Shown here piece after piece: positions 19,524 to 63,900 of a DNA stretch of 64,000 nucleotides. The notes beneath the pieces are model-generated. The model searched no databases and was not told the origin of the DNA. It was given only the letters and a program-made list of their open reading frames with translations. Position numbers and translations under genes: made by a program. Origin of the DNA: Lingula anatina (lineage: Eukaryota; Animalia; Brachiopoda); NCBI GenBank assembly GCA_051362555.1, contig CM120641.1, positions 9,114,001 to 9,178,000 on the forward strand, in the 5' to 3' direction. Every line of letters begins with the position of its first letter. Position 1 is the stretch's first letter.

Positions 19524-19555
19524 GGCTGGCCAATGCCTCTCTTCTCCAACCGCTG

Positions 19556-20836
19556 CTAGTTTAACTGATTCGCACTGACTGCCTCTGCTCTTCTAGGTGC
19601 TGGTGGGGGTCCAACTTTTACTGGTACGCAATTTCTGGCCACATGTCCAAATCCTCCACAGTTAAAGCACTGGACATTCCTACGGGGTGGAGTGACTGGT
19701 TTTACATTCAGTACTTGACATTCTCGGGCAAAGTGTCCCCTCCTACCACAATTAAAACACTGCACTGTCCTAGAGGGCGGTGGCACTTGTTTGGTTCGCA
19801 ACATTTGAGCTTCTAATAAATCCACTTTGGATGAGATCTTTTCCAAGGAACGAGTTACATCATCCAACACCTTGCTCGTCGGGTGAGATTCGTCAGAAGG
19901 GGTAATTGCAGCAGCAGAACGTACCAAATTTAATCTCCGCCCTCTTGCAGTCTCGGCATCTTGGCAAGCTTCCAATTCAATAGCTAACGATTCACAATCA
20001 TCAATGGTTCTTGGCCGATATCGCATAACATCCAATCTCAAACGGGTATCATCTAACGCGTCTAGAAAATACTCTCGCATAAAAGTGTCCTTCACTTCAG
20101 CAGTTTCATTGGTCCAACCCAGGCTAACTAAACGCCTTATTGCCTGAGCTAACTCACTAAGCGTCTCTTTAGGACTCCTTTTCCTCATCCTTGCTTGCAC
20201 CCTGTAAAATTCGGTTCTGTTTTTGGGGCTGAATCTCCTCTCTAGTGCTGTTGTCAATAGGTCGTAGTTAAAGCGGTGTTCTGGTGGGAGATCGCCCAAT
20301 ACTTGCGCAGCATCTCCTCGTAGGTTGGTTGCCAAATGGCCCATTTTCTCTTCATTACTCCACTGATACACCATGGCACAAATGTCAAATTGAGCTTTAT
20401 AATCATCCCATGAAGATTTTCCATCAAACGTGCCTAGCTTAATAGACGGGCCTGCTTTTTCCTTGACACGGGTCTGCATACTGGTCGGCATGGGATAAAA
20501 GGGGTTAGGAAATTGTTCTGACACATACTCAGGTTTGGCTCTAAGTGTAGACGGTACCCTCTCCCATCCAATCGTTCGGGCTGCCTCCTGGTTCACAAAC
20601 AGGTTGGGGTTGATGAAATGATCGTCGTCCAGGAATGGATTGGTGTTAACAGTAATAAAGGGATTAGTGTTACAGGAAGTATCAAACTCCAGTCTTCTCC
20701 TCGGGTCTGCAAAGAGCGGAGTATCATCCAACACCGGGCTCAAACATGGATTACAACTCCCAAAAGCACTGTCCCATTGTCTTGAGTGGTCGTATATCCT
20801 AGTTTCATCTGCCATAATTCTTAGAGGACGTGACAA
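19556..20836 (-). CDS. Gypsy Gag with two CCHC zinc knuckles
   Basis: 426 aa ORF: FDGKSSW..LRGDA capsid region, then CFNCGRRGHFAREC and CFNCGGFGHVARNC. Confidence 0.97.
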   Translation of the reverse strand: MSRPLRIMADETRIYDHSRQWDSAFGSCNPCLSPVLDDTPLFADPRRRLEFDTSCNTNPFITVNTNPFLDDDHFINPNLFVNQEAARTIGWERVPSTLRAKPEYVSEQFPNPFYPMPTSMQTRVKEKAGPSIKLGTFDGKSSWDDYKAQFDICAMVYQWSNEEKMGHLATNLRGDAAQVLGDLPPEHRFNYDLLTTALERRFSPKNRTEFYRVQARMRKRSPKETLSELAQAIRRLVSLGWTNETAEVKDTFMREYFLDALDDTRLRLDVMRYRPRTIDDCESLAIELEACQDAETARGRRLNLVRSAAAITPSDESHPTSKVLDDVTRSLEKISSKVDLLEAQMLRTKQVPPPSRTVQCFNCGRRGHFARECQVLNVKPVTPPRRNVQCFNCGGFGHVARNCVPVKVGPPPAPRRAEAVSANQLN

Positions 20837-20841
20837 CTTTT

Positions 20842-20861
20842 GAATCCCACCGCTGCCACCA
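20842..20861 (-). promoter_or_regulatory. Primer binding site complementary to the tRNA-Leu 3' end
   Basis: TGGTGGCAGCGGTGGGATTC, 4 nt inside the 5' LTR; complements the ...GAATCCCACCGCTGCCACCA end of metazoan tRNA-Leu(AAG/TAG). Confidence 0.9.
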
Positions 20862-20865
20862 AATT

Positions 20866-21931
20866 TGTAGCGGTTTTTGAGTCTAAAGGTAGCGTGCTAA
20901 TAAAAGTTCAATCCCAAGAAACAGAGTTCTTTTTGTCAATAAACGGTTTTATTTAAATCCAACGAAGTTTGTAAGAAGGCAATAAAAAGTTCAATGTGTC
21001 CAGATATAATTTAAATGATACTGATGAAGAGTTTGATATAAATGCATAATCCAGGGTGCTACTAGGTAAAGTCAATAATCCTAGGAGGTGTAGACATCGG
21101 TTGACATCGTACTGGTACTGGTGGGCTTCACTTCGGAATTATTCCTGCCGACGGTAACCTAGGGTCCCGTAGCTACGCTGACCCTGTCGGGATAATCTGA
21201 CCGAGATATCCCTTAACGTTGGTGCCCCCGGCCAACGTATTGCTTGTCCTAATCGACCTCCTGCCTAAGGTCTGCCTACTCTACACGGGAGATATTTCCC
21301 TCGTCATTGGTGCCCCAGCCAACGTAACTCAGGCCTTCGTTGCTACGCAAAGCCTGTCGGGAGAATCTGACGGAGATTTTCCCTGTCGTTGGTACTCCTG
21401 CCAACGTATCACTCTTCCTAACTAACCAACAATCAACCGCCCCAGTGAACCTGCCAGAGAAAGTAGAAACTTTCTCAATCGGAGCCTCGAGCGTAGCCTT
21501 GTCCCATCAGATTCGACCAACCGCCCCAGTGAACCTGCCAGAGGGAGTAGAAACTCCCTCAATCGGTACCTCGAACGAGTAGTATCCTCTGTGTCTCTTC
21601 CGTGGTATCTTCACCCAGCATGAGGTGGGCTCTGTGTCAGGAGATAATTTTATCGTTCTCACCTATGAAAGGGGAAGGGGTATAGGTAAGCTTGTAAAGA
21701 CGTGATTAGCACCAGAATGTTACTTCTGTACCGCAAGGTCGTCCTGCTCATGTTGTATAACTCGCCAGAATTATTGGCCACAGTGCTGACGAGGGTAATG
21801 GTTCCAGTCACATGAATCAATAAATTGTTACAAACGCCGAAATATTTACCGGACGCTCCCATGGGGGTCTTTATAGCCCATAATGATAGGAATTACTTTG
21901 ATAACGATTGTTAAAAATTTGTTTCATTACA
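20866..21931 (-). repeat. 5' LTR of the Gypsy element
   Basis: Near-identical to 14545-15610 and adjacent to the PBS. Confidence 0.98.
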
Positions 21932-22128
21932 ATATTTTGCACTTACATAATATAGTAAATTTTAAAATTTCATTGTGACATTCAGTTAAAACAGCAACTC
22001 ATGGCAAAATAGTTAATGCTCAGTGCTTGCAAATAACATGAACATGAGCAAAAATTTTCATCAGCTTGGTGGTTGAATCATAAATGAAAATTATCAAACA
22101 CAAGCTGAAAAACTTTTATACCAATAGC

Positions 22129-22880: not shown

Positions 22881-25200
22881 AACTAGAGGATCAGAGAGGC
22901 GATGCCGCCTCCGAATATTGTACCACCAGCTGGAGCAAGCGCATTTGTATAGACCCCCACATACACAAAATAAGGGACACAGCCACCAGTCTTTTGCTTG
23001 ACAAGCTGTAAAAATGCAATCAAGAATTTTCAAAATATGCAAAAAAAAATATATAACTTAAAATGGTACAATCAAAGTTAAGTTCATCAAAAGGTAGGTC
23101 AAAGGTCAATTTCACAGTAAGATTGCCAGTATATGACTTCCTATTCAAGTTCAATAGTAACAATGGACCTATCTCTGCCAGGTTAGGAGTTAAAAGAGAA
23201 AGAAATTAGCAGAGTTCAGTTCATGGTGAAAAGTAGGTCAAAGGTCAATTTTAAGCTCACATTTAGATTGCTAGTATATGACTTCCTATTCAACTTCAAT
23301 AGTAACTTTGGACCTATCTCTGCCAGTTTGGGAGATAAAAGGGAAGCAAAATTTGCAAAGTTCAGTTCATGGTGAAAAGTAGGTCAAAGGACAATTTCAA
23401 GGTCACGTTAAGATTGCCAGTTTATGACTTCCTATTAAAGTTCAATAGTACCTATGGACCTATCTCTGCCAGTTTTGGAGATAAAAGGGAAGCAAAATTT
23501 GCAAAGATCAGTTCATGGTGAAAAGTAGGTCAAAGGTCAATTTCAAGGTCACATTTAGATTGCCAGTGTATGACTTCCTATCAACGTTCAATAGTAACTA
23601 TGGACCTATCTCTGCCAGATTTGGAGATAAAAGGGCAGCAAAATTTGCAAAGTTCAGTTCATGGTGAAAAGTAGGTCAAAGGTCAATTTCAAGGTCACAT
23701 TTGGATTGCCAGTATATGACTTCCCATTCAAGTTCAATAGTAACTATGGACCTATCTCTGCCAGTTTTGGAGATAAAAGGGACGCAAAATTTACAAAGTT
23801 CAGTTCATGGTGAAAAGTAGGTCAAAGGTCAATTTTAAGCTCACATGTAGATTGCCAGTATATGACTTCCTATTCAAGTTCAATAGTAGCTATGGACCTA
23901 TCTCTGCCAGTTTTGGAGATAAAAGGGAAACAAAATTTGCAAAGTTCAGTTCATGGTGAAAAGTAGGTCAAAGGTCAATTTTAAGGTCACATTCAGATTG
24001 CCAGTATATGACTTCCTATTCAAGTTCAATAGTAACTATGGACCTATCTCTGCCAGTTTTGGAGATAAAAGGGACGCAAAATTTACAAAGTTCAGTTCAT
24101 GGTGAAAAGTAGGCCAAAGGTCAATTTTAAGGTCACATTTAGATTGCCAGTATATGACTTCCTTTTCAACTTCAATAGTAACTATGGACCTATCTCTGCC
24201 AGTTTTGGAGATATAAGGGACTAAATGGTATAATTTTGGAGTTACCATAGTGTGCCATAAATTTCCTACAGAAAAAAATTAATTAAGATAAAGAAAAGGT
24301 CATTTTGGTCAAAATTCTTGAAATGGGAGGTGCTTTGAAGTTCCAGATGTTCAAATTTGATGAAATAATGTCATTTTTGACCACAAGTTGTCTGCTTTGC
24401 CAAGCCCGCACATTTTGCTTTCACCACCAGTATATGACTTTTTGATAAAGCGTAACTCGAAAACCGTATGGAATACAAAAAAACGGAGACCACCTCCAGT
24501 GTTGGGCTTTACATGCTCTACAAAATGCAAAAAAGAATGGGTGTCTAGCATTAACGGTTCCCGAATTAGAGACAATTTTCAGTTTTGATATCTTATGGCC
24601 GCTACTCCCGTGAAAATGCACCGATTGACCCCAAATTCACGGAGATGAAAGATGACCCGAAGGGTAACACTTTCCATTAATATTATTAGTTAAGTCTGTG
24701 TGGTGTCTGAATAAGAGCGCAAAAAAATTTTTATTCGGCAAAAATTTTGTTTTTTTGAAAATTTTGGCCCGTTTGACCTTGAAATAAAGGTCAAAGGTCA
24801 AATCCAAGGGCATATTTGAAATCTACACATATGACTTTTGGAAAGCTGTCTGTAGAAATTTTTCCCATAATTCCTTCCGTAGGGGAGATAATTAGCATTT
24901 AATTTTGCCATTTTTGGACAAGGGTGCATTGCAATGAGTGCCACACCTAGACCCCAATACCGACAAAGCCCAAATTTTACGTGGAACGAGTTGAGATTAT
25001 AGGTGACCTAAATCCAAGAGATGGGTTTGGAGGCCCTTACCGTCTAGGAGGAGAAGCGGTAACGGTGACTTGGCGGCGGAGCCGCAGGAGCCGGCGGAGC
25101 TGCAGGAGCCGGCGGAGCCGCAGGAGCCGGCGGAGCCGGCGGAACATACGGGTCGGGACTAAAACCATGAGTACCGCCAGCGCCTACGCTGGTGGTACAA
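22881..25200 (-). mobile_element. Helentron-associated non-autonomous element (HINE/DINE-1-like), copy 1, with 8 x 146 bp internal tandem repeats
   Basis: Sub-terminal inverted repeat GTACCACCAGC/GCTGGTGGTAC; terminal hairpins GAGGCG..CGCCTC and GTACCGCCAGCG..CGCTGGTGGTAC; core repeats 23076-24220; GCGGAGCCG 9-mer array 25074-25143. A second copy lies at 32834-35199. Confidence 0.85.
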
Positions 25201-25370
25201 TTAAATTTTACCAAGCAAAGTCAAGTTTTATAGTGATTTTTGTTTGTCCAAATTAACAAGTGGATGTTCAACTTATTGACAATACTTTGTGTGAAAACTA
25301 ACTTTGCAGTTATTCAGTTTGTATTGCATACTCCTGGCACTGAAACATATTGTTCATTATTTGACTGCCT

Positions 25371-32833: not shown

Positions 32834-35199
32834 AACTAGAGGATCAGAGAGGCGATACCGCCTCCGGATATTGTACCACCAGCTGGAGTAAGCGCATTCG
32901 TATGGACCCCCCCCCCCCTCCTAAAAGGGACACCATCACCAGTCTGGTGTTTGACAAGCTCTATAAGATGCAATCAACAAGAGTTCTCAAAATATGCAAA
33001 AAAATATGACTAAAAATGATACAATCAAGCAGATTTTTGAATTGACTTGCATTTTCATACCCTTGATCACTCCTGTATTCTCTAGACAAAAGGCCTATTG
33101 GTTTTCCTTGAAATACGTTGTCAATGGTGCATATATGCTGACAAAAGATAAAACCTAGGGGAAACAATGGGGACATCTCTGCTAGATTTAAAGATATGAG
33201 AGGCAAGAAAATATGCAAAGCTCAGTTCATGGTGAAAAAGTAGGTCAAAGGTCAATTTCAATATCATAGTATATGAATTTCTATTCAAGTTCAATAGCAA
33301 CCATGGGCATTTCTTTGCCAATTTTGCAGATTTAAAGGCCAGAAAACATGCAAAAAGCAGTTCATCATAAAAAGTAGGTCAAAGGTCAATTTCAAGGTCA
33401 CAGATTGCTAGTGTACTTCCTATTCAAGTTCAATAGTAACTATGGACCTATCTCTGTCAGTTTTGAAGATAAAGGTGAACGAAAATTTGCTAAGTTCAGT
33501 TCATAGTAAAAAGACGGTCAAAGGTCAATTTTAAGGTCACAGTAAATTGCCAGTATATGACTTCCTATTTAAGTTCAATAGTAACTATGGACCTATCTCT
33601 GCCAGTTTTGGAGATAAAAGGGAAGCAAAATTTGCAAAGTTCAATTCATGATGAAAAGTAGGTCAAAGGTTAATTTCAAGGTCCCACTTAGATTGCCAGT
33701 ATATGACTTCCTATTCAAGTTCAATGGTAACTATGGACCTATCTCTGCCAGTTTTGGAGATAAAAGGGAACAAATATTTTCAAAGTTCAGTTCATGGTGA
33801 AAAGTAGGTTAAAGGTCAATTTTAAGGTCAAAATAAATTGCCTCTAATGACTTTCTATTCAAATTCAATAGTAACTATGGGCGTATCTTTGCCAGTTTTG
33901 GAGATAAAAGGGAACAAAAATTTGCAAAGTTCAGTTCATGGTAAAAAGTAGGTCAAAGGTCAAATTTAAGGTCATAGTAAATTGTCAGTATATGACTTCC
34001 TATTCAAGTTCAATAGTGACTATGGACCTATCTCTGTCAGTTTTGGGGATTAAAGGGAACGAAAATTGGCAAAGTTCAATTCATGGTGAAAAGTAGGTCA
34101 AAGGTCAATTTTAAGGTCACTGTTAAATTGCCAGTATGTGACTTCCTATTCAAGTTCAATAGTAACTATTGACCTATCTCTGCCAGTTTTGGAGATAAAA
34201 GGGAACAATAATTTGCAAAGTTCAGTTCATGGTGAAAAGTAGGTCAAAGGTCAATTTCAAGCTCACATCTAGATTGCAAGTAAATGACTTCCTATTCAAC
34301 TTAAATAATAACTATTGACCTATCTCGGCCAGTTTTGGAGATATAAGGGACTAAATGTTACAATTCTGAGTTACAATAATGTGCCACCACAAAGTACTTT
34401 TTAATACAGCATAACACGAAATCCGTTTGGAATACAAAAAAACGGAGACCACCTCCAGTGTTGGGCTTTACATGCTCTACAAAATGCAAAAAAGAATGGG
34501 TCTCTAGCATTAACGGTTCCCGAATTAGAGACAGTTTTCAGTTTTGGCATCTTATGGCCGCTACTCCCAAGAAAATGCACCGATTGACCCCAAATTCATG
34601 GAGATGAAAGATGACCTGAAGGGTAACACTTTCCAATAATATTATTGGTTAAGTCTGTGTGGTGTCTGAATAACAGGGCAAATAATATTTTTTTTCTTAA
34701 AAAATTTCATTTTTTTTTTAATTTTGGCCCGTTTGACCTTGAAATAAAGGTCAAAGGTCAAATCCAAGGGCATATTTGAAATCTACACATATGACTTTTG
34801 GAAAGCTGTCTGTAGAAAATTTTCCCATAATTCCTTCCGTAGGGTAGATAATTGGCATTGAATTTTCAAAAATTTTGACAAGGGTGCATTTCAAGGAGCG
34901 TCACGCCCAGGTCAATGCAGCGACTGAGACAAAAAAACCTGGGGGTTCAAGTTGAGGTTATATGTGACCTAAATCCAAGAGATGGGGACAGGGGTCCTTG
35001 CGGTCTAGGAGGAGAAGCGGTAACGGTGACTTGTATCCGGCGCCAGTACGCGGAGCCGGCGGAGCTTACGGAGCCGGCGGAGCCGGCGGAGCCGGCGGAG
35101 CCAACGGAGCCGGCGGAGCCAACGGAGCCGGCGGAGCCGGACGAGACGGGTCGGGACTAAAACCATGAGTACCGCCAGCGTACACGCTGGTGGTACTAA
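32834..35199 (-). mobile_element. HINE/DINE-1-like element, copy 2 (about 8 x 145 bp core repeats)
   Basis: Same termini, core repeats (about 33217-34350) and GCGGAGCCG array (35050-35140) as 22881-25200. Confidence 0.85.
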
Positions 35200-35228
35200 T
35201 TATAACAGACCAATCAACCCAATACCAA

Positions 35229-48400: not shown

Positions 48401-49559
48401 GATCTTGCCTGTAAAGACCCTCTTAAAAAACTAAATAATTCAGGCACCTCAGATTTTTGGCACAACTCATCAGTTCCAAGAATGTTGTAACATTTTTCCC
48501 TGTGTTCTTCTGCATAATTCAATGCCCATCTAGTTTTTCCTGATCCAGGTAACCCACACATCATTATTACCTGTATATGAAATTATTACAGTTCAGTAGA
48601 TCTATCCAAACAAGAAGTCAACAGCTGAGAAAATGGTACAAACAGTAAGTCATATTTCATTTTCACTTATAATTTACCCTTCTTGGCAGGGAACATCAAC
48701 AAATAGTTCTTGTATAATAGCAATCCACAAATAACTGTTCAGTAAGACAGAACCTGTTAACAAGAACAATAATGTAACATCAACTAAAAAAACATCTATC
48801 TGGGAGATACCTCACAGTCTTCCTTCTTTTCTGGTGGTAGTGCACCTCTCTGGCGGCTCTCTACTGGCACAGCATTCAGAAAAGTGAAGCCTTCCAAGAT
48901 GGTACTCATTGGTTCCTCCTAGAACATACAATTGAAATCTATGAAGGAAATGATGACACACACTTTGCATAATGCCAAAAATTCTAAGACTGAATCATGG
49001 CTCAGAATAGCGTATAATATATGATCATCTTACATCATTAAAATGTTGTCCTCATTGCCAAAGATTCGGTACGTCATGTCAGAACTGTTAAATCGACATC
49101 TTTAAGATTTTAATATTTTTGGCCATTGGCTGGCTATTTTGGTTGACCTGAATTTCACTAGCAGAATAACTTGAGTTGTAAGATTAAGCTAATTACTGAA
49201 CCCGACAGGAATTTAGCATCTCAATTCTGTGCCAACTTACTTTCTGCCCAAAGTTGGCCTCAAATTCTGTGTTCTTTGTGAGGACATGGGGGAACAATGC
49301 TTTCCCTTCAAGTTCAGAGGCAGGGACTTCAAAACAGTTGCCTTGGTCAACACCATTCTTGGTGAATTTTATGATGACTGGATCACTCTCAAAGTCCTAC
49401 AGAAAAATGGAAATAAGAATGAACACAAACACTGGCATTGTATCAAATTTTTGTAAATCCACCACACAAGTTAACCCCAAATTTCGTATTCTTGGCTCAG
49501 AATAGTGTATTGTTGAATGATCACTGGCAATCACATTAACATATCCTTGCCATTGAAAA

Positions 49560-49627: not shown

Positions 49628-52600
49628 AGTTAATTGATTACTTATTAAAGGTATAAATAAAATAATTGCAAAAAGAAAACTAAATTACCAAGACTTTGAT
49701 AGTCTAAAATAAAATCTGCCAACAAAGACAACTTACCACATAAGCTCCAATGACATCTCCCTCTCCAAATGTCTCACCATAGTCATTGAATTTACAGTTT
49801 ACTGATGATTTTGCAGTACCACCATAACCATAGGAATGGGGTTCTTCACCTATAATTTGAAAGGCCTTCTTTACAAAAAATATCTGCATGATCATTAATC
49901 CAAACAATGTACCCGTTTACTTAGAAACTTCTGTTGCCAAATCTACCAGAAATTGGGAATACCAAAGGTGCTGCTTTAACCTCTATATAAGACTTGTAGT
50001 CAATATTACCAGCTCTTACCTAGCTGCATACTTGTATCCCCTGTGGACCAGCCAACACGGACCACATGTCTGCTCGTCTCTTCATCAGGGAGATGGTCTA
50101 CTTTGATTTGCTCCATGATCTAAATACAACACATGAAAGTAAAAATGTGTGCAAAGAAGATTAATTAAATAATTATGTGTAATTCTTAGATACTCAAAAT
50201 GTTTTAAAGAACTGAATTTCCAGCATTTACCTTGACCTCATAGCAGACCTTCCCTTCCTTAACTCCCCACATAGCTCTTGCACCTGCCCACATGAATGCA
50301 AAGCCTTCCATGGTTAGAGGAACACATTTGAAACCATCCTTGTCAATCTTCAGATTCAAGTCAGAGTTATCTGGAATGATGCAATTTTTTCAGTACAAAG
50401 AGTGCATAAATAAAATTCTACAGATTAAATGTGACAATTTACTATTCTATAACATAGACTCATGTCCCTTTGTAATGTATTATATGTCCAAGACAGATAT
50501 TATGCCAAATACTTTGACTAACTTTTTCTATGCCAATCACATCTGTGTAGCATATCTAACAAACATGTTCTTTGAGCCTTTTGCGAACAACTCACATCTG
50601 TCCCACTGTACATCTGTAGCACTCAGCCATTCTTCACTCTCTTCTTCCCTTGGTGGACTTTTTCCCCTAAAATACACATGGACAGCATTGTAATGACCAA
50701 TTATAGTGCCTATCAAAGGTCCATTTCTTTATTATGCTATACCTCAGGGCGAGCAGGCATGAGTTTCCCCCCAATTTATTCATAACTATGTCCACAGTAC
50801 TTGCTATTAACAGAAAAAATGCTTGAGAAATGTGCACCAATGCATTGTAAAGTACCTCGGGGAATGTCTGTGCCTATCTCTCGACCTTGACCTAGACTTC
50901 TGTCTGTGGGGTGAGCCCGATTTCCTTCTGCTCCGGTCCTTTGATCGACTTCTTGAACGAGATCTTTTCCTGCCTCTCTTCTCTTCTATAACACAAGACA
51001 ATAAAACACCATAAATTTTAAGAACTGCCTACTCTCATGTGGGTCTCAACTCCATTACATGCTAAATTTTTTCAATGATACTATCAGTATAGAACACAAT
51101 TCTACCCCCCCCCCCCCTTTTTTTAATGAGGCTGGCCACAGTCATGACACACTAAGTAATTTTGATTTAAATACCTTTTATTAGTGCTATACAAATTAAA
51201 GCTTCCACTTGCCCAAAAACTAATAAAACTACTACAATGAAAGCAAAACTAAAAAAAATTTACAACTGCACACTTTACCTATACGTTGTCTTGCATGCAC
51301 TTCTACAGAGACCCATATCAAGTAGTTTCAAAATGTTCTGTTCAGCACACTTAAGTTACCTTTGTTATCTTGGTTATTATCTTCCCGTTTCACATCATCC
51401 TCTGCCTTTTCTTTTTCCTCCTGCATCTCTTTTTGTCTATCCATCTTCTCTTCAGTTTGTGCTACATCTACAGCACTCACACTATTACCTTGTTCCATAG
51501 ATTCTTCCTCTTCAGCTGGTTGTTCGGATGCTTCTTCACTCTTTTCATTCATTACTTGGTCAGCACCCTCTTCCTCTTTGTGGTTTTCTGATTCCTGGAG
51601 TTAAGAATTTTATTCTTTATTTTCAAAATTAAAAAGTACCTTAATATCTCAAACTTCTTGCTATTCAAAAGAAATATTAGTAGTTATTCACCACAACAAT
51701 AACATTTTGGTTAGGTAGCAATGTTTCAATTTACATTACGTAACATTGAGCTTTTGCAGCATTTCTCCATTACTGCACTTCTCCCACTTCTCTCTAGGTT
51801 TAACCTTCTTTAAAAATCAAATGCAGCAATCAAGCCAATGTTAATCAAATTAAAAGACTTACAAGAAAAGAAAGCTGGTGAAAAGCTTTATGTATAAAGC
51901 CACCCCTCCTCTCTTCGGTTTTCATCAGAAACCAGGCACTGGACAAAATCACTCACCCAAAGAACTTTTCCAAATTCCATCTTCTTTATCTTCAGTTCTC
52001 ATTCTTCAATTGGATTTCTCATTAAATTGGTAACACAATTGGAAAAAATTTCCACAACAGACCATTCTTACACAACACCAGATTTATTAAATCGATACAT
52101 TCCACAACCAATCCCTCATGCCTTCCTGTCACTTGTAGATCACAATGTAAATTTGAGAAGCCCCAAAACTGTCAAAAGTTTCCATTTCAATTGACAGAGA
52201 TAATGCATACAGGATTCACAGGTTGATTAAAAATTGTGTTATTCCATTCAATTAGATTGATTATCACATCTTTTTGATGAATCAATTCATTTACATCAAA
52301 GTCAAGCCCAAATAAAAGAACACATACATTAACAGAAATGTTAACCAATGTCCACGACAAGGCTCTTCAAGCTTAAATATATTATTCTCAAGCGTCTGTA
52401 CAAATCTCTTCTTTTCTTTACAGTATATAACTTATGTTGGTAAGGCAGCTCTACAGGCTTCCTGCTGGCATTGCTTTTAACCAAGTGTCTTCCATTCTTC
52501 CAAGACATTTATATACACAAGTCTTAACTGTCATCTTCAACCATAAATGGATATTTTTGTGTGCAATGATATTGTAATTGTATATATGTGCTAATTAACA

Positions 52601-55600
52601 CTGTCCCCTTCAACTGACATTTTCATTACATACAAAAAGCTTTACATATATAAAATAAAAATTCTATGACCATCAAAATTAAGTGTACAGCAATTATTAT
52701 TAGCGAGATATTAAAATGTCATAATTCCTGTACCTTCAACTAGGTCCATAAATTCAATATTAGTATCTCTTGTTATGTGGACAACAAGAGCCGGTATGTC
52801 CTCTACGACCACAGCCAAGGCATAGTTTAGTAAGAGACAAGCACACCACATCAGCATGACCCTCTCTACCACATCTATAACAGGTGCCAGTAAAATGGCA
52901 ACCTTCATGGGCACTGTGTCCAATGCGACCACAATGCCAGCATTTGTCTGGCCACACATGGGACAAGTTGAGACGAACTCCAATCAAGGCATCATCCCAC
53001 TGTCTGCCTGCTATTTTCACCACATCCTTCACTACCTTTCTGAGGGCTCCAAGTTGCAGGTTCACCCCACTCACTGGATCTATCCAGCCTTCTTGATTAC
53101 TGTTGCCATCTGCTCCCCTCATCTGGCTGGCTATGCTGTAAAATGGTGTCTGGTATTTACTGCTCAGGAGACGGCACATGTTGTCCAGATGGTCGGTGTG
53201 GTCAGCTGGAATGTCTTGCCTATAACCAGGGGCCACAATGATTGGCTTCACATGCATACGGTGCAGAAATGCTATCAACTCCTCATAGACAAAACTCACT
53301 TTTCCAGTGATCCAAGCTATGATACTCTCATTTGGTACCAGCTGGTAGTCGGCCAAGTCATTGGATCCCATACAAATAGCTGCCCATTCTGTATTTTCTG
53401 CAAGGTCATTGGTTGCAAGGACATGTTTAACAATCTCGCTTGCTCTTCCTCCTGCTATAAATCTGGCTTCCACAGAAAGTTCGTATAACAGTCTTATGAT
53501 GTCAGCATCTTCTGCCAAACCTTTCAACAAATTATCTCCTATGAAAACCATTGGTTTAACATGAACAGAAAAGGCCAAGGGTACAGAATATTTGGCCCTC
53601 TTACGGTCAGTGCCCCTGTCACTGCTCTCTCTTCTTGAATTACTCTTTTCCCTTTCAAAAGGTCTCTTCTCTGAACTTCTTTGTTCATTTTTATAAAGTG
53701 CCCTATATCTGTCAGCTTCTTTCTCCAACCCCTTTATCTCAGCTTCTTTCTCCTTCAGTTTCCGGGCAAGATAACGAACCTCTTTCTTTTGCTTATCTAC
53801 TTCATGTCTCAGGCGCTCTTTTTCCTTCTCAGATTGATCTTTCATTTTTTCAAACTTAAATTTGGTATCACGCAAAACCATTTCTTTGCGCTTTATTTCA
53901 CCTTTCAATCCAATGGCCATGTCCTTTCCATTGCCATCAGTTATCTTACCAGTCTCCAACTTGATTATATAATCCTGTGAACTTCTCAGCTTCTTCTTCA
54001 GTTGACTATTCTCCAATGTGATTCTCTTTACCTCCTCCTGTAATTTACCCCAATCTCTTGCCATTTTCTCAATCAGCAACTGGGATTCTCTGCACTTAAA
54101 ACACCTCCAGTGCCTGTGCCCAATAGCCTTCTCATCCTCTTCACCAAGACAATTTTTATGATAGATTCTAGGGCAACCATCACATTTCACCCATTCTTTC
54201 TTCTCTTGGTCTTCTTCCTCATCTTCCTCTGTCTCTAGGCAGATAGGACAGGCATCCAAATCTAAGTCTTCTTGGTCAAAGTTGTCTCCGGACACCTCTT
54301 CTACTACAACCATATCTTCACCCTGATGGGAAAATATAGCCTGCTCAACAAAACTTATTATTCTTAATAATTACTAATGCAGTAAGGAGGTACCTTAATT
54401 ATAAACTAAAAAATACAGAGCAACCCTCTTTGATATCTCTCCACCACTGCAACTAAACAAAACATTTCAGTATGCAGGAAAAAAACTTTGTCAACTTCTC
54501 TCAAATAACCTACCTTCCTTTAAAACTCTTGGTTTCATTGTATGAATGAAAATTTGAACCTGTTTTATCAAGATACAGTTGTATGAAATATGCTATTTCA
54601 GAGTGGGAATCTATTTAATCGAATGGGAACCAAAAAAGCCCGAAGTCTTGTGGCTCAGGATAAAAATTAAGCGAGAAGCATGTATTCACTATGTTTTGCT
54701 TGTTATGATATCATGCAATAATTGGTAGCCCCATTTCACACTATCTTTTAATGGTTTCCATGATAAATAAGTCTAGTTTTTTTTCTGGTTCCAATTGCTA
54801 CTTACAAACTTTATGTAAGGTCATGTGTCGTGAACTGGTGTCTTAAAATCAAGGAAATGTTTACACAAACTGAAATATTTTCCTTTGGCGCAACTAATGT
54901 ATTTGTTGCAGTATAAACCATGGCTTTCTTGGAACCAGCTTTTAGCATTTTTTGTCTATTTTCAGGGAGAAAATATAGATGGGACACAGTAACTTAGACC
55001 CTTGCAGCACACTGAAAAAGGTATTTGCAATACTAATGTGAAAGCAATGATACTTTCAAACACTATATATGACAAGTAGTTCCAGTTTTATGATGAGTTT
55101 TCTAAGGAAACCCACACAACAAGAAATATTACCCATGTAACACAAATAAGACCAGTTCAGGACGCATGAACATACAAGCTTGCTACTTTATATTGACAAC
55201 AAATGATAACAAAGTGCATTACTATCAAAAAACACAAAAATACTCAAAGTTGCTCCATTACTAACATTAGTTTGCATGTAACTTGCCAATGTCATTGATT
55301 TTCACAAAAATCTTATGACATATTGCATAGAAATGTTGACATGTAAGGTTGGGAAGTGAACAATGGTATACAACATGAACTGGGTCATTGCTCAGCCAGA
55401 GGCATTTATATATCATTTTGACAACTGTATCCACAAAGAAATGTGGAAAGCAAAGTTTAAAGTTTAGAGCAGAACAAAAAGTTAGTCATTCATTCTTACC
55501 TCTTCCTGTTGTTGTTCTTCTGGTTGTTCACAAGTATCTGCTGCTGGCTCTGGTTCATTTTCTAATTCTTCTTCCTGGGGTAGTTGTTCTGGTTCTACGT

Positions 55601-56301
55601 CTGGTATTTCTACAGGTGCCTCTCCCTTTCTGGGTGAAATGGACTCATCTAAGTCTTGACTCCCATCATCTGTTGTATCAAGAATAGAGTCATCCACCTG
55701 GCTGTCATCTGCTGGAATAACCACATACAGCAATGAGTTTTGTTTAACATTTTTTAAAGAAATTCAAGACCTTCTCTTCAAGTTTTGTATTTTACATTTC
55801 ACAAAAACAGAAATTTTGAAGTGATGATGGTTTACAAGAACAATTCATTTCTCACATTTTTGATGGGAAACAAGCCCTTTTCAAGGCAACAAATATAAGC
55901 AATACAATATAAAGTGCTTTTCAGGGCAACAAATTCATTGTGCAGATCTTAACTCAAACACTTTTCAAGCCTGGTAAGCCATACTTACAGCAGGCCTAAA
56001 GTTGAAGGAAATACAGACTCTTAATTATTTTTGTTGGAATCAATATTATTCTGTGGTGACCATTTTTTAAAATAAACTAAATGGAATGAGATTGCATTCC
56101 CTCAATTTAAAACCCAATTATGAGATTTGAGTTAAGTGGCTATATAAAGGGTTTACCGGTCTCTATCCCTTGTTCTTTGTCTAATGCATTCTGCAGTCTT
56201 TTCACCAACTGGGCTTTGTTTCCTTTGCTGTCCAGGCCTCGCGTCTTTAGTTCCTCCCTCAACTCCACAACCTTCAACTTTTTTGGATCAATTTCACTCA
56301 T
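42416..56301 (-). CDS. HNRNPUL1: hnRNP U / hnRNP U-like protein (SAP, SPRY, AAA_33 P-loop, RGG, prion-like tail); co-ortholog of vertebrate HNRNPU/UL1/UL2
   Basis: Exons 56301-56157 ([18 protein letters not shown]), 55711-55500, 51594-51360, 50985-50856, 50666-50596, 50370-50231 ([16 protein letters not shown]), 50119-50020, 49849-49737, 49396-49241, 48918-48811, 48184-48062 (GLPGSGKT), 47867-47739 ([10 protein letters not shown]), 45921-45753 ([18 protein letters not shown]), 45460-45302, 45029-44877 (RGG), 44016-43966, 43491-43394, 43144-42929 and 42586-42416. An in-frame upstream ATG exists at 56334; polyA signal near 41670. Confidence 0.95.
48448..48570 (-). CDS. Duplicated alternative Walker-A exon of the hnRNP U-like gene
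   Basis: CAG|123 nt|GT, phase 0/0, encodes [41 protein letters not shown]; paralogous to exon 48184-48062. Confidence 0.75.
48998..49060 (-). ncRNA. SNORD54: Box C/D snoRNA, SNORD54/U54 homolog (guide for 18S Gm644, human numbering)
   Basis: TGGCA-ATGAGGA...TATACGCTATT-CTGA-GCCA. Terminal stem, variant C box as in human U54, and an 11 nt guide complementary to 18S AAUAGCGUAUA; the D+5 rule gives the G of AAUAG. Intronic and sense to the host gene. Confidence 0.88.
49493..49552 (-). pseudogene. Degenerate second SNORD54-like copy
   Basis: TGGCAAGGATA...ATACACTATTCTGAGCCA: D box and stem are kept, the C box is damaged, and the guide has one mismatch. Confidence 0.6.
49557..49625. repeat. (AAAT)n microsatellite
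   Basis: About 17 units seen directly. Confidence 0.95.
52760..54322 (-). CDS. Intronic transposon-ORF1/Gag-like ORF (PHD, coiled coil, SGNH-like, 3x CCHC); candidate alternative terminal exon of the hnRNP U-like gene
   Basis: 517 aa uninterrupted ORF: CPIC..CDGC..H..C..WRCFKC (PHD), long coiled coil, IGDN / GG / MGSND (SGNH blocks) and three C-terminal zinc knuckles. Acceptor TATTTTCCCATCAG at 54323 is in frame, phase 0. Confidence 0.85.
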   Translation of the reverse strand, partial: GEDMVVVEEVSGDNFDQEDLDLDACPICLETEEDEEEDQEKKEWVKCDGCPRIYHKNCLGEEDEKAIGHRHWRCFKCRESQLLIEKMARDWGKLQEEVKRITLENSQLKKKLRSSQDYIIKLETGKITDGNGKDMAIGLKGEIKRKEMVLRDTKFKFEKMKDQSEKEKERLRHEVDKQKKEVRYLARKLKEKEAEIKGLEKEADRYRALYKNEQRSSEKRPFEREKSNSRRESSDRGTDRKRAKYSVPLAFSVHVKPMVFIGDNLLKGLAEDADIIRLLYELSVEARFIAGGRASEIVKHVLATNDLAENTEWAAICMGSNDLADYQLVPNESIIAWITGKVSFVYEELIAFLHRMHVKPIIVAPGYRQDIPADHTDHLDNMCRLLSSKYQTPFYSIASQMRGADGNSNQEGWIDPVSGVNLQLGALRKVVKDVVKIAGRQWDDALIGVRLNLSHVWPDKCWHCGRIGHSAHEGCHFTGTCYRCGREGHADVVCLSLTKLCLGCGRRGHTGSCCPHNKRY

Positions 56302-56430
56302 GATCGTAATGCTTCCTTCACCTGGAATATCCATAGTACTCCTTCTTTAAAATTCCTTTATAAAAACATTAATTAAACGACATGAGCTACTGAAATTTCC
56401 AGAGCATTTAAGAGTAAAATAACCGGCTTG

Positions 56431-57005
56431 CACTTACCAGATCATTCAAAATGGCGGCACATTGAAGCGTGGGCGATCGCAGCGCCACATTTAGCAGTCG
56501 GAATTTTTATTAAAATCTTTTTCATTGGTTAGATTTCTTAAGCACTTCCTCGTAAATCAACCATATAAACCATAGCGGAAACTTATTCAGTACTGTTAAT
56601 GAATCCTAATATGACTACAAACATACTTTGACTCTAATTAACTATAGACTGTTACTTAATTCCAGCTACTATAGAATATGCTGAGGGCATTGTTGGTGAA
56701 GAACTGACCAAGGACTTAAAAAACAACAACAAATCAAAAAGCAGTTTGGAAAAAGGGAGCAACTGACAGTTTGCATGGAGTTATCTATACATTATAGATT
56801 CATTGGTTATATTTATTCATAATATGAAATTTGATGAATATGTAATTGATATATTGATGTTATTTAGCTTTCTAAATACAACTTTATGTTCTGGAGACAA
56901 AATGCATAATTGTTTTGTAAACACTAAGAGCTTCTCCCTCCAATGCGCAGCTGAGAGTTCATTTTGTTATTTACTGCGCAGGGTAGCAACACATTAGTTT
57001 ACATC
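56431..57005. promoter_or_regulatory. Bidirectional promoter region between the hnRNP U-like gene and EFCAB2
   Basis: The two ATGs are about 700 bp apart and divergent. A YY1-type motif CAAAATGGCGGC (56447-56458) lies in a short 5' UTR exon with donor CTG|GTAAGT. An RFX half-site-like GTAGCAAC and a forkhead-like GTTTAC (56983-57002) precede the ciliary gene. Confidence 0.6.
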
Positions 57006-60000
57006 ATGGCGGACGAAAAGGAAAGTTCGGGTGAGTTAAATTTCTCGTTTTAGTCACTACTTGAAACGATACAAAAATACTCGATTTCGCATATTACCTG
57101 TATTTGTATTTCTAACAGAATTGTAATTGGTTTTACATATTTTATAGATAACTATTTTTTTATTTATTTGAAAAACTTTATACCACTATACACTACTGTA
57201 TATATATATATATAGGCCAAATACACAGCAAATTTATTTTTAGAAATGATTTTTTCATTTAAATCCTTATTCAAAACTTATGAAGAGAGGGGTACTGATG
57301 TGTGTGTGTGGAGGAGGGGGGTATAGATATGGGGAATACCATGCAGATACTTATCAATGCTGGTAAGGTAATTTTCCTAATGGTGTAACTGTTAACTCAC
57401 AAGTCCACCTGTTTGCAGATGACTGCATAGGGGCTTACTTTACAGAATCAGAACCATTAGGAAAATTACTGACTACATCCTTTTGCAACAGGAATTGACG
57501 ATCTTTAAACATGGTCTACAGCATGTAATAGGAAATGTCCTTTAATGCTAAAATGCTACATGTATATCAACCAAAAATCCTCTCATTTTTATCAACTTAA
57601 AAAAAAATCATACCTGTACATGTATATATATTGGAACAAGTTTCCAAATGTCTTTATCTTGGTGTAACTCTTTCTGGTTATCTGAAATGGACCCCCACAT
57701 TAGAAAAGAAACTGAAAAAGCTAGCTGCTCACTCAGTCTCCCCCCCCCCCCCAAAAAAAAAGGGGGGAAATTAGTCTGTCAGTCTGTAGCAGTGGCAGAT
57801 TAAAGGAGTGTATCAGGGGGTCCTGCCCCCCCCTTTCAATTTCTGAAAAAATCAATGGTCTCCTCTTGAAATTAGAATTACTGTGATTAGTTCTAAATTG
57901 TACCAAATGGCACCTTTCGGCCTTTAAAAAACCAAAATTTTCTGGGGCCCTTCAGCTTCCCAAACCCACGCCAAAGGAGCTAGGGTGGGGGTGGGGGGCG
58001 GGGGGCTTTGCCCCGCCCCCCCTTCAAATAATCCTGGGTCTGCCCCTGCTTAGTCCCCTCTACACTAGAGTACAGTCTTATAGTCTGGGATCCCTTTAAC
58101 CAGAAAGATATTGACAAAATTGTTCAAAGCTGAGCAGCACACATCATAACAGGTGACTAAGCTGACAGAAAGCATTGGGTCTGGAAAGGCAGCTCGAAGT
58201 TAAAGCTGAAATAAAGAAAAAGAAAAGGCTTTGCAAGTGGATTTGTTAAATGTTTGAGTATACTGTATAGTAGGTAATAATCATTGTTCATTTGGCAAGT
58301 GGTTATTATTCTGTATGTTTTATATATATATTATGTCTTATTTTGTTTCAATTTTTCACATCAGAGTCCATGATAGCAGATGTGCAAAAAAGAATAACAG
58401 ATGCATTTGACATTTTTGACCATGAATCAAATAAAACAGTTGATGTCAGGTATGTCACACAGTAACAATTCTGTTTTAATGTAGTAATGGTTGATGAAGA
58501 ATTGTCTACATAAATAAAAAGACTCATAATTAGTTTTTGTATTTTTTGTATGCATTTCTTAATATGTTATATGTTTTTCTCATTAATTTGGCATCATGTA
58601 ACATGTATGTTAGGTTAGTCATTATTCATAACTACTTGAATAGAAATAATATAAAGAATTTATCATTTGCCTTGTGTAGGGAAGTTGGAACAATTGTGCG
58701 GTCCTTAGGCTGCTGTCCAAGTGAAGCAGAGCTGCATGATATGTTGGAGGAGGTAAGGGGATAGTCTTTGGGGATAACTTTAGATGCCAGCCATATGGTC
58801 ACCATTCACATGTATATTGATAATTAAGGAGAGAAAGCAATCAGTCTCAGGGGCGGATCCAGAGATATTTTCTGACAGTCTTCCAAATGATCTTTGTTGA
58901 TCCATGCACCATTTTTGACCATCTTCCGACAGAAAAAATTAGATACCTTTCATTGTAAACTTGAAAATCTGACCATCTTTCAGAAGATGCCTTAATCCAC
59001 CCCTGAATCTTTTTTGCAATATATTTGATATCCAAACCAGTTATGAATTTCAAATATGCACATCCAGAACAAGCAGGTGGCATACTACAAATAGAAGATG
59101 ATTATTAGTCGATTATCTTTTCATGAAAACAATATGTAGGATGATTTGTGATTATCTTTTCAGATTGAGGAAGAAGAACCAACTGGATACATTAGATTTG
59201 AAAAGTTTTTAGCTATGATGACTCATGTTTTAATGGAGAGAAGGTAATTAATGGTCACCAATATGAAATAATCCATTGAAACACATCTTTTCTGGACATT
59301 TTGATAAAATGAGTCATTCAATAATACTGCCACATTTTGTTTTTGTTTGCTTACATTTTTTGTTTCTTTTCAGGTACAAACCTTCTCCAGAGGATATAAT
59401 TTTAAAAGCATTAATGACATTAGATGTTGAACATAAAGGGCATTTAACCCAGGAAGAGATTACAAAATATATGACAACAGAAGGTAAGTACTGAATCCAG
59501 CACAAGAGATTTTAATGCAGTAAAATGTGAGATGGTATACTAAAGCATACCCCATTTAGAATGAGAGCTGTGATTTCCATATAATCTTGATCATGTCTGA
59601 TTGTAGAATTCAACAGGTCTGTGTCACAAAAATCAACTGAAGCAAAGAAGATAATTATGTTTTTTATGAAACACTCTATGAAAATCTCAATGGGCCATAC
59701 AAAATGTGACTATTAAAAACAGGGGCAATAAATCAGAAAATGTCACTGACAATTAAAAAACAAAATAAAATAACATTTAGCAAAAGTACTAGGTTAAAAA
59801 TATTATTAAACACTTTGTAAACATTTTTAAAAATGTACTTTACTGAAGTTTCAAAAGTCAGTATTTTTGCTTCACATTTTGTTACCAACAAGTTATTCAA
59901 AAGTTTAGGAATATACATCTGAAATGCTTTGTTCCCACTTTATGGAATTGCTTTCCTATCAACAGGTATTAACATGAAAATCAATAAATCTAGATCTAGA

Positions 60001-60269
60001 CATCTTTTCTGAATGTTTCTCCTGGATATATTTTCATTTGACTGGGCATTCAGTTTACCAAAGATTAATTTTATATTTAAAAATATCTTATACATGTGCT
60101 TCTTCTGAAGGTTATCTAGATAAAAGCACTGACGTTGAAATCTTCTATTTCAGGGGAACCATTCACACCTGAAGAAATGGAAGAGATGCTCTCAGCTGCT
60201 GTGGACCCAGACAAGGGTGTGGTTCTGTATAAGGACTATGCCTCTGCCATGGCACTGGAGGAAACATAA
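57006..60269 (+). CDS. EFCAB2: EF-hand calcium-binding domain protein 2 / dynein regulatory complex subunit 8
   Basis: Exons 57006-57030, 58365-58449, 58680-58752, 59164-59243, 59374-59483 and 60154-60269 give MADEK..AFDIFDHESNKTVDVREVGTIVRSLGCCPSEAELHD..EEEEPTGYIRFEKF..EGEPFTPEEMEEMLSAAVDP, matching human EFCAB2. Confidence 0.96.
57380..58160 (+). mobile_element. Decayed CR1/L2-type LINE RT C-terminal fragment, interrupted by a GC-rich MITE (about 57790-58048)
   Basis: VHLFADDC, YLGVTLS..LKWTPHI and LEYSLIVWDP remnants; insert bounded by CAGTGGCAGAT ... TCTGCCCCTG. Confidence 0.7.
58848..59005. mobile_element. CAGGGGCGGAT-type MITE, second copy
   Basis: Reverse-complement homolog of 32046-32212. 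Confidence 0.8.
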
Positions 60270-60931: not shown

Positions 60932-63900
60932 TCAAAGTTTTGAGAACTCTGCTGGTTTCTTCTCTACTGCTGCCATGGCAGCTGTCATAACATCTTCACT
61001 CTGTAGCATTGCTGAATTCCAACATGCCTGTAAAATAAGTATGGAATAATTACGTCATCATAAATATGGTAGCAAAGACTGACAATTTTTATATGCAGAA
61101 GATGTCCAGTGTATACCAAACAAAGTTTTACAAATAAAAGAAAAACAGACTGCAAATAATTTTAAGTTGAACATGATAATAAAAGCAGCTCTATAATGTA
61201 TTCCAAAATGAAAAATTCATACTATGTGTTCTAGTCCTTCTTGTACTGAATGGTCTCTGGAGTATACTATGCTAACTTTGGATCCCTGGACAGCTATTGG
61301 ACTTTTGCTGGCAATTAGTGCTGCTGTTTCTATGGCAGCCTCTATGGTAGATTCTCTGTCTGGCAGAATTCGACTTAAAAAAACATTTGTATATTTATAA
61401 CCAACTTTTGAAATACATTTTCAAAGATGTAGACTCGCCCTTCAAGAAATCGATGCCTTCAAGAAATCGACGAAAACCGGAAGTGCGTGTTTTTTGCACT
61501 GTTTTTCCTGTCATGCCCATCGCAAACACTCTGTTGTCAAGTAAAATGAAGCGTCTGATACAAAGTATCAAACGCGGCATTCACGTGCTTGCTTGCGATG
61601 CGTTCAGTACACTTTGTTTACACTGACAAGTCGAGGTCAGAAATGCACAATGTTTTTCTATGTAATTACGCAGTTTCAATTTTGATTAGTGAATCTTATT
61701 TTATCTGCATCGTCATTTTCCGAACATTTGTATAAGCCACGAAATATTTCTCATCGGAAAATCACCCAGCAGCTTTCCAAGTGCAAGCGAGTGACGTCAT
61801 GACGCACTTCCGGTTTTCGTCGAGATCTTGAAGGGATAAGCGTTACGGTTTGCTGCACATTTAAAGCGTTCTGTCTCAAAATGTACTTAACTGCTTGGAT
61901 TGAAATTTACGGAACTTTTTCTTCACATGATATCACACATATGTGCTTAATTTGAGAGCTTTAGCTGTCATATGTTTTCTACAGTGCCCATTCAAATTTG
62001 AAAAAGAGCTATTTTCCGTCGATTTCTTGAAGGGCAAGTCTACCATTTGCTATTAGTGTTGTAGTGGGTATATGAGTATACACAGTACAAGAACAACATC
62101 ATAAATCATGTTGACTTAGGAGCAAACAATGGGATTCATAAAACACTTGTCTTTTCACCTCTTCACTTTGCAATGGAAAATTGCTAAATCTGTAATTTAT
62201 GATTCTTTTCCACGCCTTCTAAATTTCTTAAATGTCACAAGATGATGTATCACCAGAAAATGTTGGTATTCCAATAGCTTTTCTCCCACTGAACTACTGT
62301 AAGTGTATATCCTAATTTTGGTCAGCAAAGCCAATTTTGACATCCAGTCATGTAAGGGGCAGGGTATTGACTTTGTGTGCAAATCTGAAATGATAGTTTT
62401 TTGTTTTGACCATCAACAATCGATTAAATAATTCAGTTTCTTTTCATCAATCCAGTTGTCATTTACCTGACAAGTCCACATCTCATTGCTTCATCTGCCA
62501 TCATCTTTCTTGCTGTATATGCCAGTTCTCTTGCTAGACTGTCATTGCCCACAACTTTTGGTAGTCTCTGTAATGTTCCCACATCTGCAGCCAAACCTAC
62601 ATCCACTTCCTGAAATATTCAAATTTAACACCTGACAATCTAACACACAGGGGGAAGCAGAGCAAGGGGGGGGGGGAGCAGTGGTCTCAAAACTTTATGT
62701 AATCATCCAATATTGTCAATATTTGTCATACCTTAACCTGGAACCAGGCATCCTGGGAGCAATATCTGATATCACAAGCTGTGATCAGGTCTATGCCACC
62801 ACCAACACAGGCATTGTGCACAGCCACTATCACAGGCTTGGGGCACTATGAAAGAGAATTTTAAAAATATACATTGAAAATTTTGGAACAACTGTCATGC
62901 CTGTATTATATACTGATCCTTGTACAGTACCATAGCATAAAAATAATTTTGCACTTTCATATCAGTACTTAAATACATGTAAATTGCATGCCATAATCCT
63001 AATAAGGCATCCAAATACTTAACTTCTGTATAAAAAAAATGACAGACTGAAGAACTTCCATGCATGTGTAAAAATGTCACCAAACATGCAAATATAAACA
63101 CAATTAGTACACAAAAACAGCTTCTCTACTGAGGCAACAAATATATACACCAACCTTTTCCATACAAGTAAATGTGTCCTGATATCTAGCAATAGCACCC
63201 TTTAACTTCATGCTCTTCCTTCCCACATCACTTTCCATGGGCATTAGAGATGCTATTTCTTGCAAGTCAATTCCTAACAATAAATAACTCTTTTCATTTT
63301 TCTTGTGATTGAAGACAAATGATGATTAAAATGCAGGGATTAGAACATGTAATTTTACTTAACTTTTGAGCAAATCTTGAGAAAAAAATGTAAACTGAAA
63401 CTGAAATATGTTAAAAAGGGTAAAATGTCCTTGTCTATTGTGCATGATTTTAGTGTCTCACCTGCTGTGAACAGTTTCCCAGCACCTGACACAACAACTG
63501 ATCTACAGTCTGGGTCTGTGGACACCTTGTTAAAACATTCCACCATTTCCCTAAGTATGAAAGAGAAAAATAGATAACTTGTTTCATCGCAGTCAATTTT
63601 CAAATTTAGTTTAATTCATTTATGGCAATCAAGAATTTCTAATCATACAACAACACTCTCTGTACATACTCTCTCTATGTTTATTGTTTTTGAAAATAAT
63701 CGTAAGTTGTAACATGTTATTTTTCTATATCAATTTTTTTATTAAGGAAGCAGCAAATGGTAAGTGACAGCCTACAAAAAATTTTAAAGCTTTCATATAT
63801 ATTTATAAGATATCTGTATACTAGTACTGTACCTCCAAAATGCTGCGTTCATGGCATTTCTCTTTTCTGGTCTGTTGAGTTCCACTTGCAGCACATACTC

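Follow-up and report, generated by a model that had tools for sequence, protein, structure and literature searches.

What is an uninterrupted open reading frame (ORF) of 520 codons doing, sense-oriented, in the second intron of an hnRNP U-like gene? The question is raised by a 64,000-nt stretch of the Lingula anatina genome (the window), which carries the HNRNPUL1-like gene, its SAP exon matching XP_013416100.1 at 100%. We found that the ORF is spliced in frame to the first two coding exons of this gene and expressed, and homology places it in a family of ORF1 sequences from long interspersed nuclear elements (LINEs). The exon is likely a domesticated LINE ORF1 fusion isoform. Our favored reading, to which we assign a probability of roughly 0.55, is that it descends from an old domesticated insertion and that its predicted product of 639 aa would dimerize and, with no need of ATP, tether RNA to chromatin. 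The parts of the locus on which the argument turns are as follows.

56157..56321, minus strand: first coding exon with the SAP domain, ATG at 56301 (100% identical to XP_013416100.1 residues 1-48; RNA joints).
55500..55711, minus strand: second coding exon, acidic linker with the shared phase-0 donor and an alternative acceptor at 55708 (RNA and RefSeq).
54323..55499, minus strand: intron of the fusion transcript, GT-AG, 1177 nt (27 junction reads).
52760..54322, minus strand: LINE-ORF1-related coding part, 520 codons plus stop (open frame, RNA, homology to relatives).
51957..52759, minus strand: 3' non-coding remainder of the alternative exon, seen in RNA (depth and variants) and containing an AATAAA.
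51957..51980, minus strand: start codon at 51980 with a donor after 51957 that continues its frame into exon 3 (RNA and the RefSeq X6 start, one allelic change).
51360..51594, minus strand: canonical third coding exon (RNA joints and RefSeq).

The exons of the RefSeq isoforms of the HNRNPUL1-like gene align one after another along the minus strand, between 56301 and 43961, and the ORF1-like frame is absent from the five isoforms compared (cluster members X1-X4 and X6; X5, expected at between 622 and 690 aa, was not in the set). The frame is open from 54322 to the stop codon at 52762-52760; the initial annotation of this DNA, made from sequence alone, had counted its 517 codons from the ATG at 54313. 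Given a stop-triplet frequency of 6.9% in the flanking non-coding DNA, a 520-codon frame has a chance probability of ~1e-16, and its GC content is 43.7% vs 32-33% in the flanks. The acceptor (...CCCATCAG at 54323/54322), the donor after 55500, the phase and the AATAAA at 52088-52083 were all located as annotated. Coding exons 56301-56157 and 55711-55500 amount to 119 codons in phase 0, and joining them to the ORF gave the anticipated product of 639 codons with a single stop, in the order SAP-PHD-coiled coil-SGNH-3xCCHC. The ORF itself was not found by exact look-up (two forms), a word-index search, or HMMER over 1.84 billion representatives, and a word-index search with alignment A1 had no match. 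The ORF exon is unannotated in the protein collections searched.

We mapped four RNA runs from three studies (X13, stranded; X16; X19, oligo-dT; X20) to positions 50500-56800, with ~6-26% of each run read. The predicted junction, 55500->54322, was seen at the exact sites in 4/4 runs, with 14, 2, 9, and 2 reads in X13, X16, X19, and X20, against 26, 27, 39, and 31 reads for the canonical joint 55500->51594. The fusion therefore took 27/150 exon-2 donor reads (35, 7, 19, and 6% in the same order); four more X20 reads, in which the canonical alignment was shifted and the clipped ends were short, were left out of the counts. Depth in X13 was 8-33 over the ORF vs 0-1.4 in the upstream intron, with ORF signal on the host-gene strand only. 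X19 and X20 represent a lineage in which many exon differences from the window are fixed, and both had the junction. The fusion splice is real and expressed.

How the exon ends is less simple than the terminal exon initially proposed. The AATAAA is present, and X19 depth of 9-13 at 52173-52288 followed by 2 at 51965 fits an end near it, but a donor at 51957, 803 nt past the ORF stop, joins exon 3 in nine reads (seven X13, two X20). This donor lies downstream of the AATAAA, so the exon may not be terminal. X13 depth of 4 at 52154 and 23 at 51965 fits a separate start; in both runs depth dips are weak evidence. The frame of the ATG at 51980 yields the start of RefSeq X6 (SAP-less, 622 aa), save for one allele seen in X13. 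Either the ORF exon can be a 2366-nt cassette, or X6 starts inside the intron, and the terminal-exon and 51957-spliced forms may coexist. A stop codon far upstream of an exon junction usually exposes a transcript to nonsense-mediated decay (NMD). The cassette would have this configuration because its stop lies 803 nt before the junction, and some transcripts, those using 51957 while carrying the ORF, may be NMD targets.

These observations could mean that the exon is regulatory. Its inclusion would divert transcripts from full-length hnRNPUL1, be it through a premature stop, through NMD, or through early polyadenylation; alternatively, its 3' part would be the first exon of X6. In both cases the ORF1 protein would be incidental. 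Use of the 51957 donor and the RefSeq X6 start at the 51980 ATG/51957 donor favor this explanation, and poison exons are a frequent means of autoregulation in genes for RNA-binding proteins. However, a poison exon needs an early stop rather than 520 open codons with the variant pattern described next, and the drop in X19 depth fits an end near the AATAAA. We consider a purely regulatory exon quite unlikely.

Variants were evaluated in the 40 rows listed of 95 variant rows, a scope that applies to the variant counts given here. Within the ORF 6/8 were synonymous where a share of 0.20-0.27 was expected (P 0.001-0.006), corresponding to an omega of ~0.1, while the host acidic-linker exons had 2/11 synonymous variants (Fisher P 0.024 vs the ORF). 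The ORF had no indels, against five indel rows (~3 events) in the non-coding stretch that follows it (P 0.039). Substitutions numbered 14 in the 3' non-coding part vs 8 in the ORF, a comparison not used as evidence since the shortened row list could bias it. The pattern, from a small set within one species label, points to purifying selection on the ORF.

HMMER returned 73 hits to the ORF, nine of them at E <= 1e-10. The best relatives are unnamed ORFs of 700-890 aa with 22-29% identity to the exon, and they share an architecture of a conserved ~100-aa N-terminal domain, PHD, coiled coil, SGNH, and three CCHC knuckles. A family hidden Markov model (HMM) built from 11 relatives, with the Lingula sequence left out, matched aa 28-519 of the exon at E 6e-69 (single target). 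Relative P0021 (26% identity to the exon, E 4e-26) lies in locus L001 upstream of an ORF with Exo_endo_phos and RVT_1 domains. There, frame 1-1467 encodes the PHD and coiled coil and frame 1329-2270 the SGNH and knuckles, followed by a 1155-aa frame in which both domains exceed Pfam cut-offs and whose best PDB matches are the R2 and LINE-1 reverse transcriptases (RTs). At 1329-1467 the ORF1 of L001 is split into two overlapping frames just ahead of the esterase, for which mutation, assembly error, and a frameshift signal are alternatives. Because the relative with DNA context (1/1 locus) sits upstream of an ORF2 encoding an apurinic/apyrimidinic endonuclease (APE) and RT, we assign the family to LINE ORF1; from their sequences, L001 is a LINE and the Lingula exon a LINE-ORF1-family member, in keeping with the transposon ORF1 origin first proposed. 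An LTR (long terminal repeat) or Penelope origin was rejected, as L001 carries APE and a non-LTR RT. The C-terminal Cys/His motif of the L001 ORF2 presumably recalls RTEX-like elements.

Elsewhere in the family, another relative comprises four members of 875 aa, located on four large contigs, as would fit either repeats or several assemblies, and the top Atlas clusters were GDSL + zf-CCHC proteins (score 0.93; commonest taxon Annelida, nine records). The conserved N-terminal domain (residues ~1-110) is present in P0019, P0022, P0023, P0025, P0026, P0028, P0056, and P0057 and had no Pfam or Atlas match. A family tree of 25 of the 28 alignment rows (P0039, P0054, and P0050 were dropped as too short) was not resolved and gave the exon a long branch. 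Searches for family loci in viral contigs and prokaryote genomes found nothing, and alignment A2 was too diverged to yield patterns. The relatives include a gene annotated in Patella (XP_050411120.1). This and the ATG located 9 nt into the exon would suit an independent nested gene starting at 54313, or a family of host genes that has nothing to do with transposons. Such an explanation is hardly credible, since there is no RNA depth at 54509-55141, the 5' edge of the signal is explained by the exon-2 splice, and in the relative with DNA context an APE-RT ORF comes next.

The Lingula copy is much reduced. The exon begins 24 codons ahead of the PHD and lacks the family N-terminal domain, and an HMM scan of the 1177-nt intron recovered no remnant of it. 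No ORF2 match was found near the exon (best tblastn E 4.0), as the initial annotation had claimed, and only 1166 nt separate the ORF stop from exon 3. No flanking target-site duplication was found at the locus among 17 short repeat families. The locus showed none of the intact-LINE features (ORF2, 3' tail, target-site duplication).

Could the exon nevertheless be a recent neutral LINE fragment, open through youth and exonised by a chance acceptor? Transposable elements (TEs) are active in this genome: a Gypsy-type LTR retrotransposon at 14544-21933 (minus strand) has LTRs (14544-15612 and 20865-21933) that are 99.25% identical, an open gag (446 aa), and an open pol (1303 aa) with protease, RT, RNase H, and integrase. 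With an intact young element in the window, domestication in this genome does not follow from an open TE ORF by itself, and the contrast that the initial annotation drew with broken older elements carries less weight. Lingula LINE ORF1s may also be missing from protein libraries. On the other hand, 5'-truncated LINE copies normally retain ORF2 and the 3' end rather than ORF1 alone, whereas at this locus ORF2, the N-terminal domain, a tail, and a flanking duplication are all missing, and the same junction in a diverged lineage together with the synonymous bias also speaks against a neutral fragment. We regard it as very unlikely.

The domains of the exon were assigned from Pfam, motifs, and a structure model of the ORF built with a 28-row alignment (mean pLDDT, the predicted local distance difference test, 82, compared with 42 for single-sequence AlphaFold).

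54092..54250, minus strand: PHD finger, aa 25-77, Cys4-His-Cys3 (Pfam PF00628, 25.5 bits vs a cut-off of 24).
53675..54100, minus strand: coiled coil, aa 75-216, predicted parallel homodimer (modeled helices 75-123 and 132-216).
53564..53674, minus strand: disordered basic/acidic linker with an RKRAK patch (pLDDT <50 at aa 217-253).
53000..53560, minus strand: SGNH fold, aa 255-441, predicted pseudo-esterase (VIA-align Z 19.6; Foldseek E 1.5e-8).
52781..52942, minus strand: three CCHC zinc knuckles, aa 461-514 (motif; cysteines at least 90% conserved in alignment A1).

All four module types named in the initial annotation were recovered, the PHD by Pfam, the SGNH by model and structure search, and the knuckles by motif and alignment. 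The best solved relatives of the PHD are AIRE PHD1, CHD4, and PHF21A. It keeps the canonical His, a column that is His in 1/12 covered relatives, has a Cys-Asp aligned to the AIRE pair that binds H3R2, and has no Trp two before the His. Asp23, two residues before the first PHD Cys, is in our assumed numbering the equivalent of AIRE Asp297. AIRE and PHF21A (BHC80) are reported to read unmethylated K4, with the AIRE Cys-Asp contacting H3R2 (PMC2685098), and the exon PHD would likely recognize unmethylated H3K4.

The coiled coil is predicted to dimerize. Its homodimer model scored 0.58 vs 0.00 for the best control, with at least 89% of contacts shared between runs and pLDDT of at least 78; the same mark was reached by 21/30 solved pairs and 0/23 single chains from microbes, and by 7/16 animal pairs. 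Pfam matches on this segment were weak and compositional. The RKRAK patch that follows may be RNA-binding or resemble a nuclear localization signal.

The SGNH fold matched SGNH hydrolases in Foldseek, a search that had been suggested for it, and aligned to 3mil_B (Z 19.6, root-mean-square deviation (rmsd) 4.8, 195 aligned) and 3p94_A (Z 19.2, rmsd 3.3, 174 aligned). The catalytic Ser, Asp, and His are replaced by N264, S418, and N421, while the oxyanion Asn321 is retained; among relatives the Ser is kept in 21/24, the Asp in 21/26, the His in 24/26, and both Ser and His in 20/23. Mutation of Ser or His abolishes esterase activity in ZfL2-1 (PMC3905857). Because the triad is replaced and these mutants are dead, the exon domain is predicted to be inactive, and an active esterase was rejected. 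The SGNH-esterase assignment of the initial annotation thus stood as to the fold, while the loss of the triad had been missed. The ZfL2-1 esterase was not among the structure matches listed, which excludes nothing, and the matches in a search of viral folds were generic SGNH domains of phages. The knuckles had weak nucleocapsid matches, and their position after the SGNH in both the exon and its relatives sets these apart from CR1/L2 type IV esterase ORF1s, in which no structured RNA-binding domain is expected beside the esterase.

In the mechanism that we favor, a LINE would have inserted sense-oriented in intron 2 of the HNRNPUL1-like gene, an acceptor 24 codons before the PHD would have captured ORF1 while leaving out its N-terminal domain, and ORF2 would have been lost while selection kept ORF1 open. 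SAP would anchor the fusion on DNA, the PHD would likely recognize unmethylated H3K4, the coiled coil would make a constitutive dimer, and the dead SGNH and three knuckles would likely hold RNA, with retroelement transcripts as a first guess at the targets. Retrotransposon modules would in this way stand in for the AAA and RGG parts with which the normal protein oligomerizes, driven by ATP, and binds RNA. We infer translation, nuclear location, and histone and RNA binding of the fusion. More doubtfully, though still possibly, splicing may work as a switch between an AAA/RGG protein and a SAP-PHD-coiled coil-pseudo-esterase-knuckle protein of undescribed ORF1 architecture that traps retroelement RNA on silent chromatin via unmethylated H3K4, with the same exon also giving a SAP-less isoform.

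A domesticated restriction factor would draw on the same parts. The fusion would co-assemble, by way of its coiled coil, with the ORF1 proteins (ORF1p) of related active LINEs or bind the RNA of these elements, and SAP would hold the particles on nuclear DNA or scaffold, blocking retrotransposition. All ORF1 modules that build ribonucleoproteins are retained and catalysis alone is lost, and the same idea was raised for L1TD1 and Lyosin (PMC12129022). Yet no close cognate ORF1 is known (best 29% identity over long matches, long branch), Lyosin was reported to have no effect on L1 activity in human cells (PMC12129022), and the few variants seen suggest purifying rather than fast change. We find a restriction factor unlikely and retain the domesticated tether as the better account.

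That account agrees with the exapted chromatin- or RNA-binding protein first proposed, for which the splice, the ORF1 homology, the missing ORF2, and the synonymous bias all speak, though the open TE ORF is insufficient here by itself. Several observations weigh against it. The young intact Gypsy shows that TEs are active in the Lingula genome. The ORF variants are few, come only from the rows listed, and lie within one species label. Fusion inclusion is 6-7% in 2/4 runs, ORF depth in the diverged-lineage runs is 0.4-6, and the 51957 donor is in use past the stop. The LINE origin comes from one locus with context at 25% identity, with its ORF1 split over two frames. The coiled-coil passes may stem from model memory of solved structures. 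P0025 and P0057 (2/23 relatives) likewise have neither Ser nor His, so loss of the triad is not necessarily a consequence of domestication. ORF1 sequence was found in none of 17 hnRNP U-like proteins, taken from other animals or other isoforms, and SAP in 0/85 hits; conservation of the fusion across animals, without support in either set, was rejected.

The host gene and its surroundings have further features. A non-coding exon ends at ~56438 upstream of the first coding exon (joints and loose read ends). The tandem acceptor 55711/55708 of coding exon 2 and the alternative donor of exon 3 (51489/51360, minus strand) were each used in 4/4 RNA runs, and the two choices match RefSeq X3 and X4. 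Two paralogous Walker A (P-loop) exons at 48573-48445 and 48187-48063 (minus strand), ~53% identical, are mutually exclusive ATPase exons, alternatives in RefSeq X2 and X1, and an intronic C/D small nucleolar RNA, snoU54, lies at 48995-49060 (minus strand; 56.6 bits vs a cut-off of 35). RGG- and Gly/Gln/Trp-rich frames at 43500-42400 (minus strand), past the RefSeq stop at ~43961, resemble the C-terminus of the Owenia ortholog and are probably unannotated 3' exons. Just upstream of the gene, X13 has opposite-strand (plus) reads at 56619-56800, with EF-hand-like exons beyond them at 58274-60269 (plus strand), which we take to be EFCAB2-like; the region is likely a bidirectional promoter. Exons at 61200-63600 (minus strand) are presumably enoyl-CoA hydratase-like. 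Besides the Gypsy element, the window contains broken LTR-retrotransposon pol pieces at 6658-13575 with a hAT dimerization fragment (10006-10407) and a Dam-like fragment (8098-8466), related tandem arrays at 23073-25203 and 33163-35202 (83-92% identity, 10 kb apart), and a repeat of 60-nt period at 3322-3803.

LINE ORF1 fusion exons are already known as a kind, and the Lingula case is a new variant. Among those described, NUP42-L1 and USP4-L1 use ORF1 as last coding exons and Lyosin and L1-RFX5 as first exons (Kitao et al. 2025, PMC12129022), with purifying selection reported for 3/4 L1 ORF1p fusions (PMC12129022). As in these fusions, the ORF1 in Lingula serves as an alternative coding exon that keeps the reading frame of the host exons. 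Those fusions are vertebrate and of L1 type (coiled coil-RRM-CTD), whereas the Lingula exon comes from a brachiopod, is of esterase type with a PHD and three knuckles, and is joined to a chromatin scaffold protein, replacing its oligomerization and RNA-binding modules. The accessible parts of Kitao et al. (PMC12129022) make no mention of invertebrate, esterase, CR1, or hnRNP cases. In CSB-PGBD3, too, the N-terminus of a chromatin protein is continued in frame by an alternative 3' exon that is a transposon ORF lying in an intron, and there the protein, conservation over 43 million years, and the terminal exon were shown (Newman et al. 2008, PMC2268245); it derives from a DNA transposase, while the Lingula exon is an ORF1 with the 51957 donor in use downstream.

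The ORF1p of ZfL2-1 and other CR1/L2/RTEX esterase elements has a coiled coil, basic linker, and SGNH (Schneider et al. 2013, PMC3905857; PMC4120745), as does the Lingula exon. Repbase esterase ORF1ps are described as conserved in their active sites and as lacking a structured RNA-binding domain (PMC3905857), Table 1 of PMC4120745, as far as accessible, has no esterase ORF1 with CCHC or PHD, and esterases are reported to move among retroelements (PMC5408684). Unlike ZfL2-1, the Lingula family unites PHD, SGNH, and three CCHC, and the exon lacks the triad. Human SAF-A oligomerizes via AAA and binds chromatin RNAs by RGG (Nozawa et al. 2017, PMC5473940). The fusion has the same SAP start and the logic of an oligomerizing, RNA-binding C-terminus, but with a coiled coil and pseudo-SGNH/knuckles in place of AAA and RGG, and no ATP cycle is predicted. 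Oskar OSK is likewise a catalytically dead SGNH fold, and it binds RNA (PMC5785220); with Z 14.6, rank 31 of the 50 matches listed, below bacterial and yeast esterases, and 11% identity, the likeness is analogy and not kinship. In the open-access literature we found no described hnRNP U/HNRNPUL1-transposon fusion, in Lingula or elsewhere, as the initial annotation had stated, and no described ORF1 with SGNH, knuckles, and PHD.

LINE ORF1 fusion exons have thus been known from four vertebrate genes, all of L1 type and with their function open. The Lingula exon extends them to an invertebrate and to a different ORF1 class; it is expressed, belongs to a gene for a core nuclear scaffold protein, and would amount to a module-for-module swap. 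The ORF1 architecture of its family (N-terminal domain, PHD, coiled coil, SGNH, three CCHC) is unlisted in the accessible parts of the ORF1 papers compared, and the exon, as a natural, predicted dead esterase, lets one ask what the ORF1 esterase does beyond catalysis.

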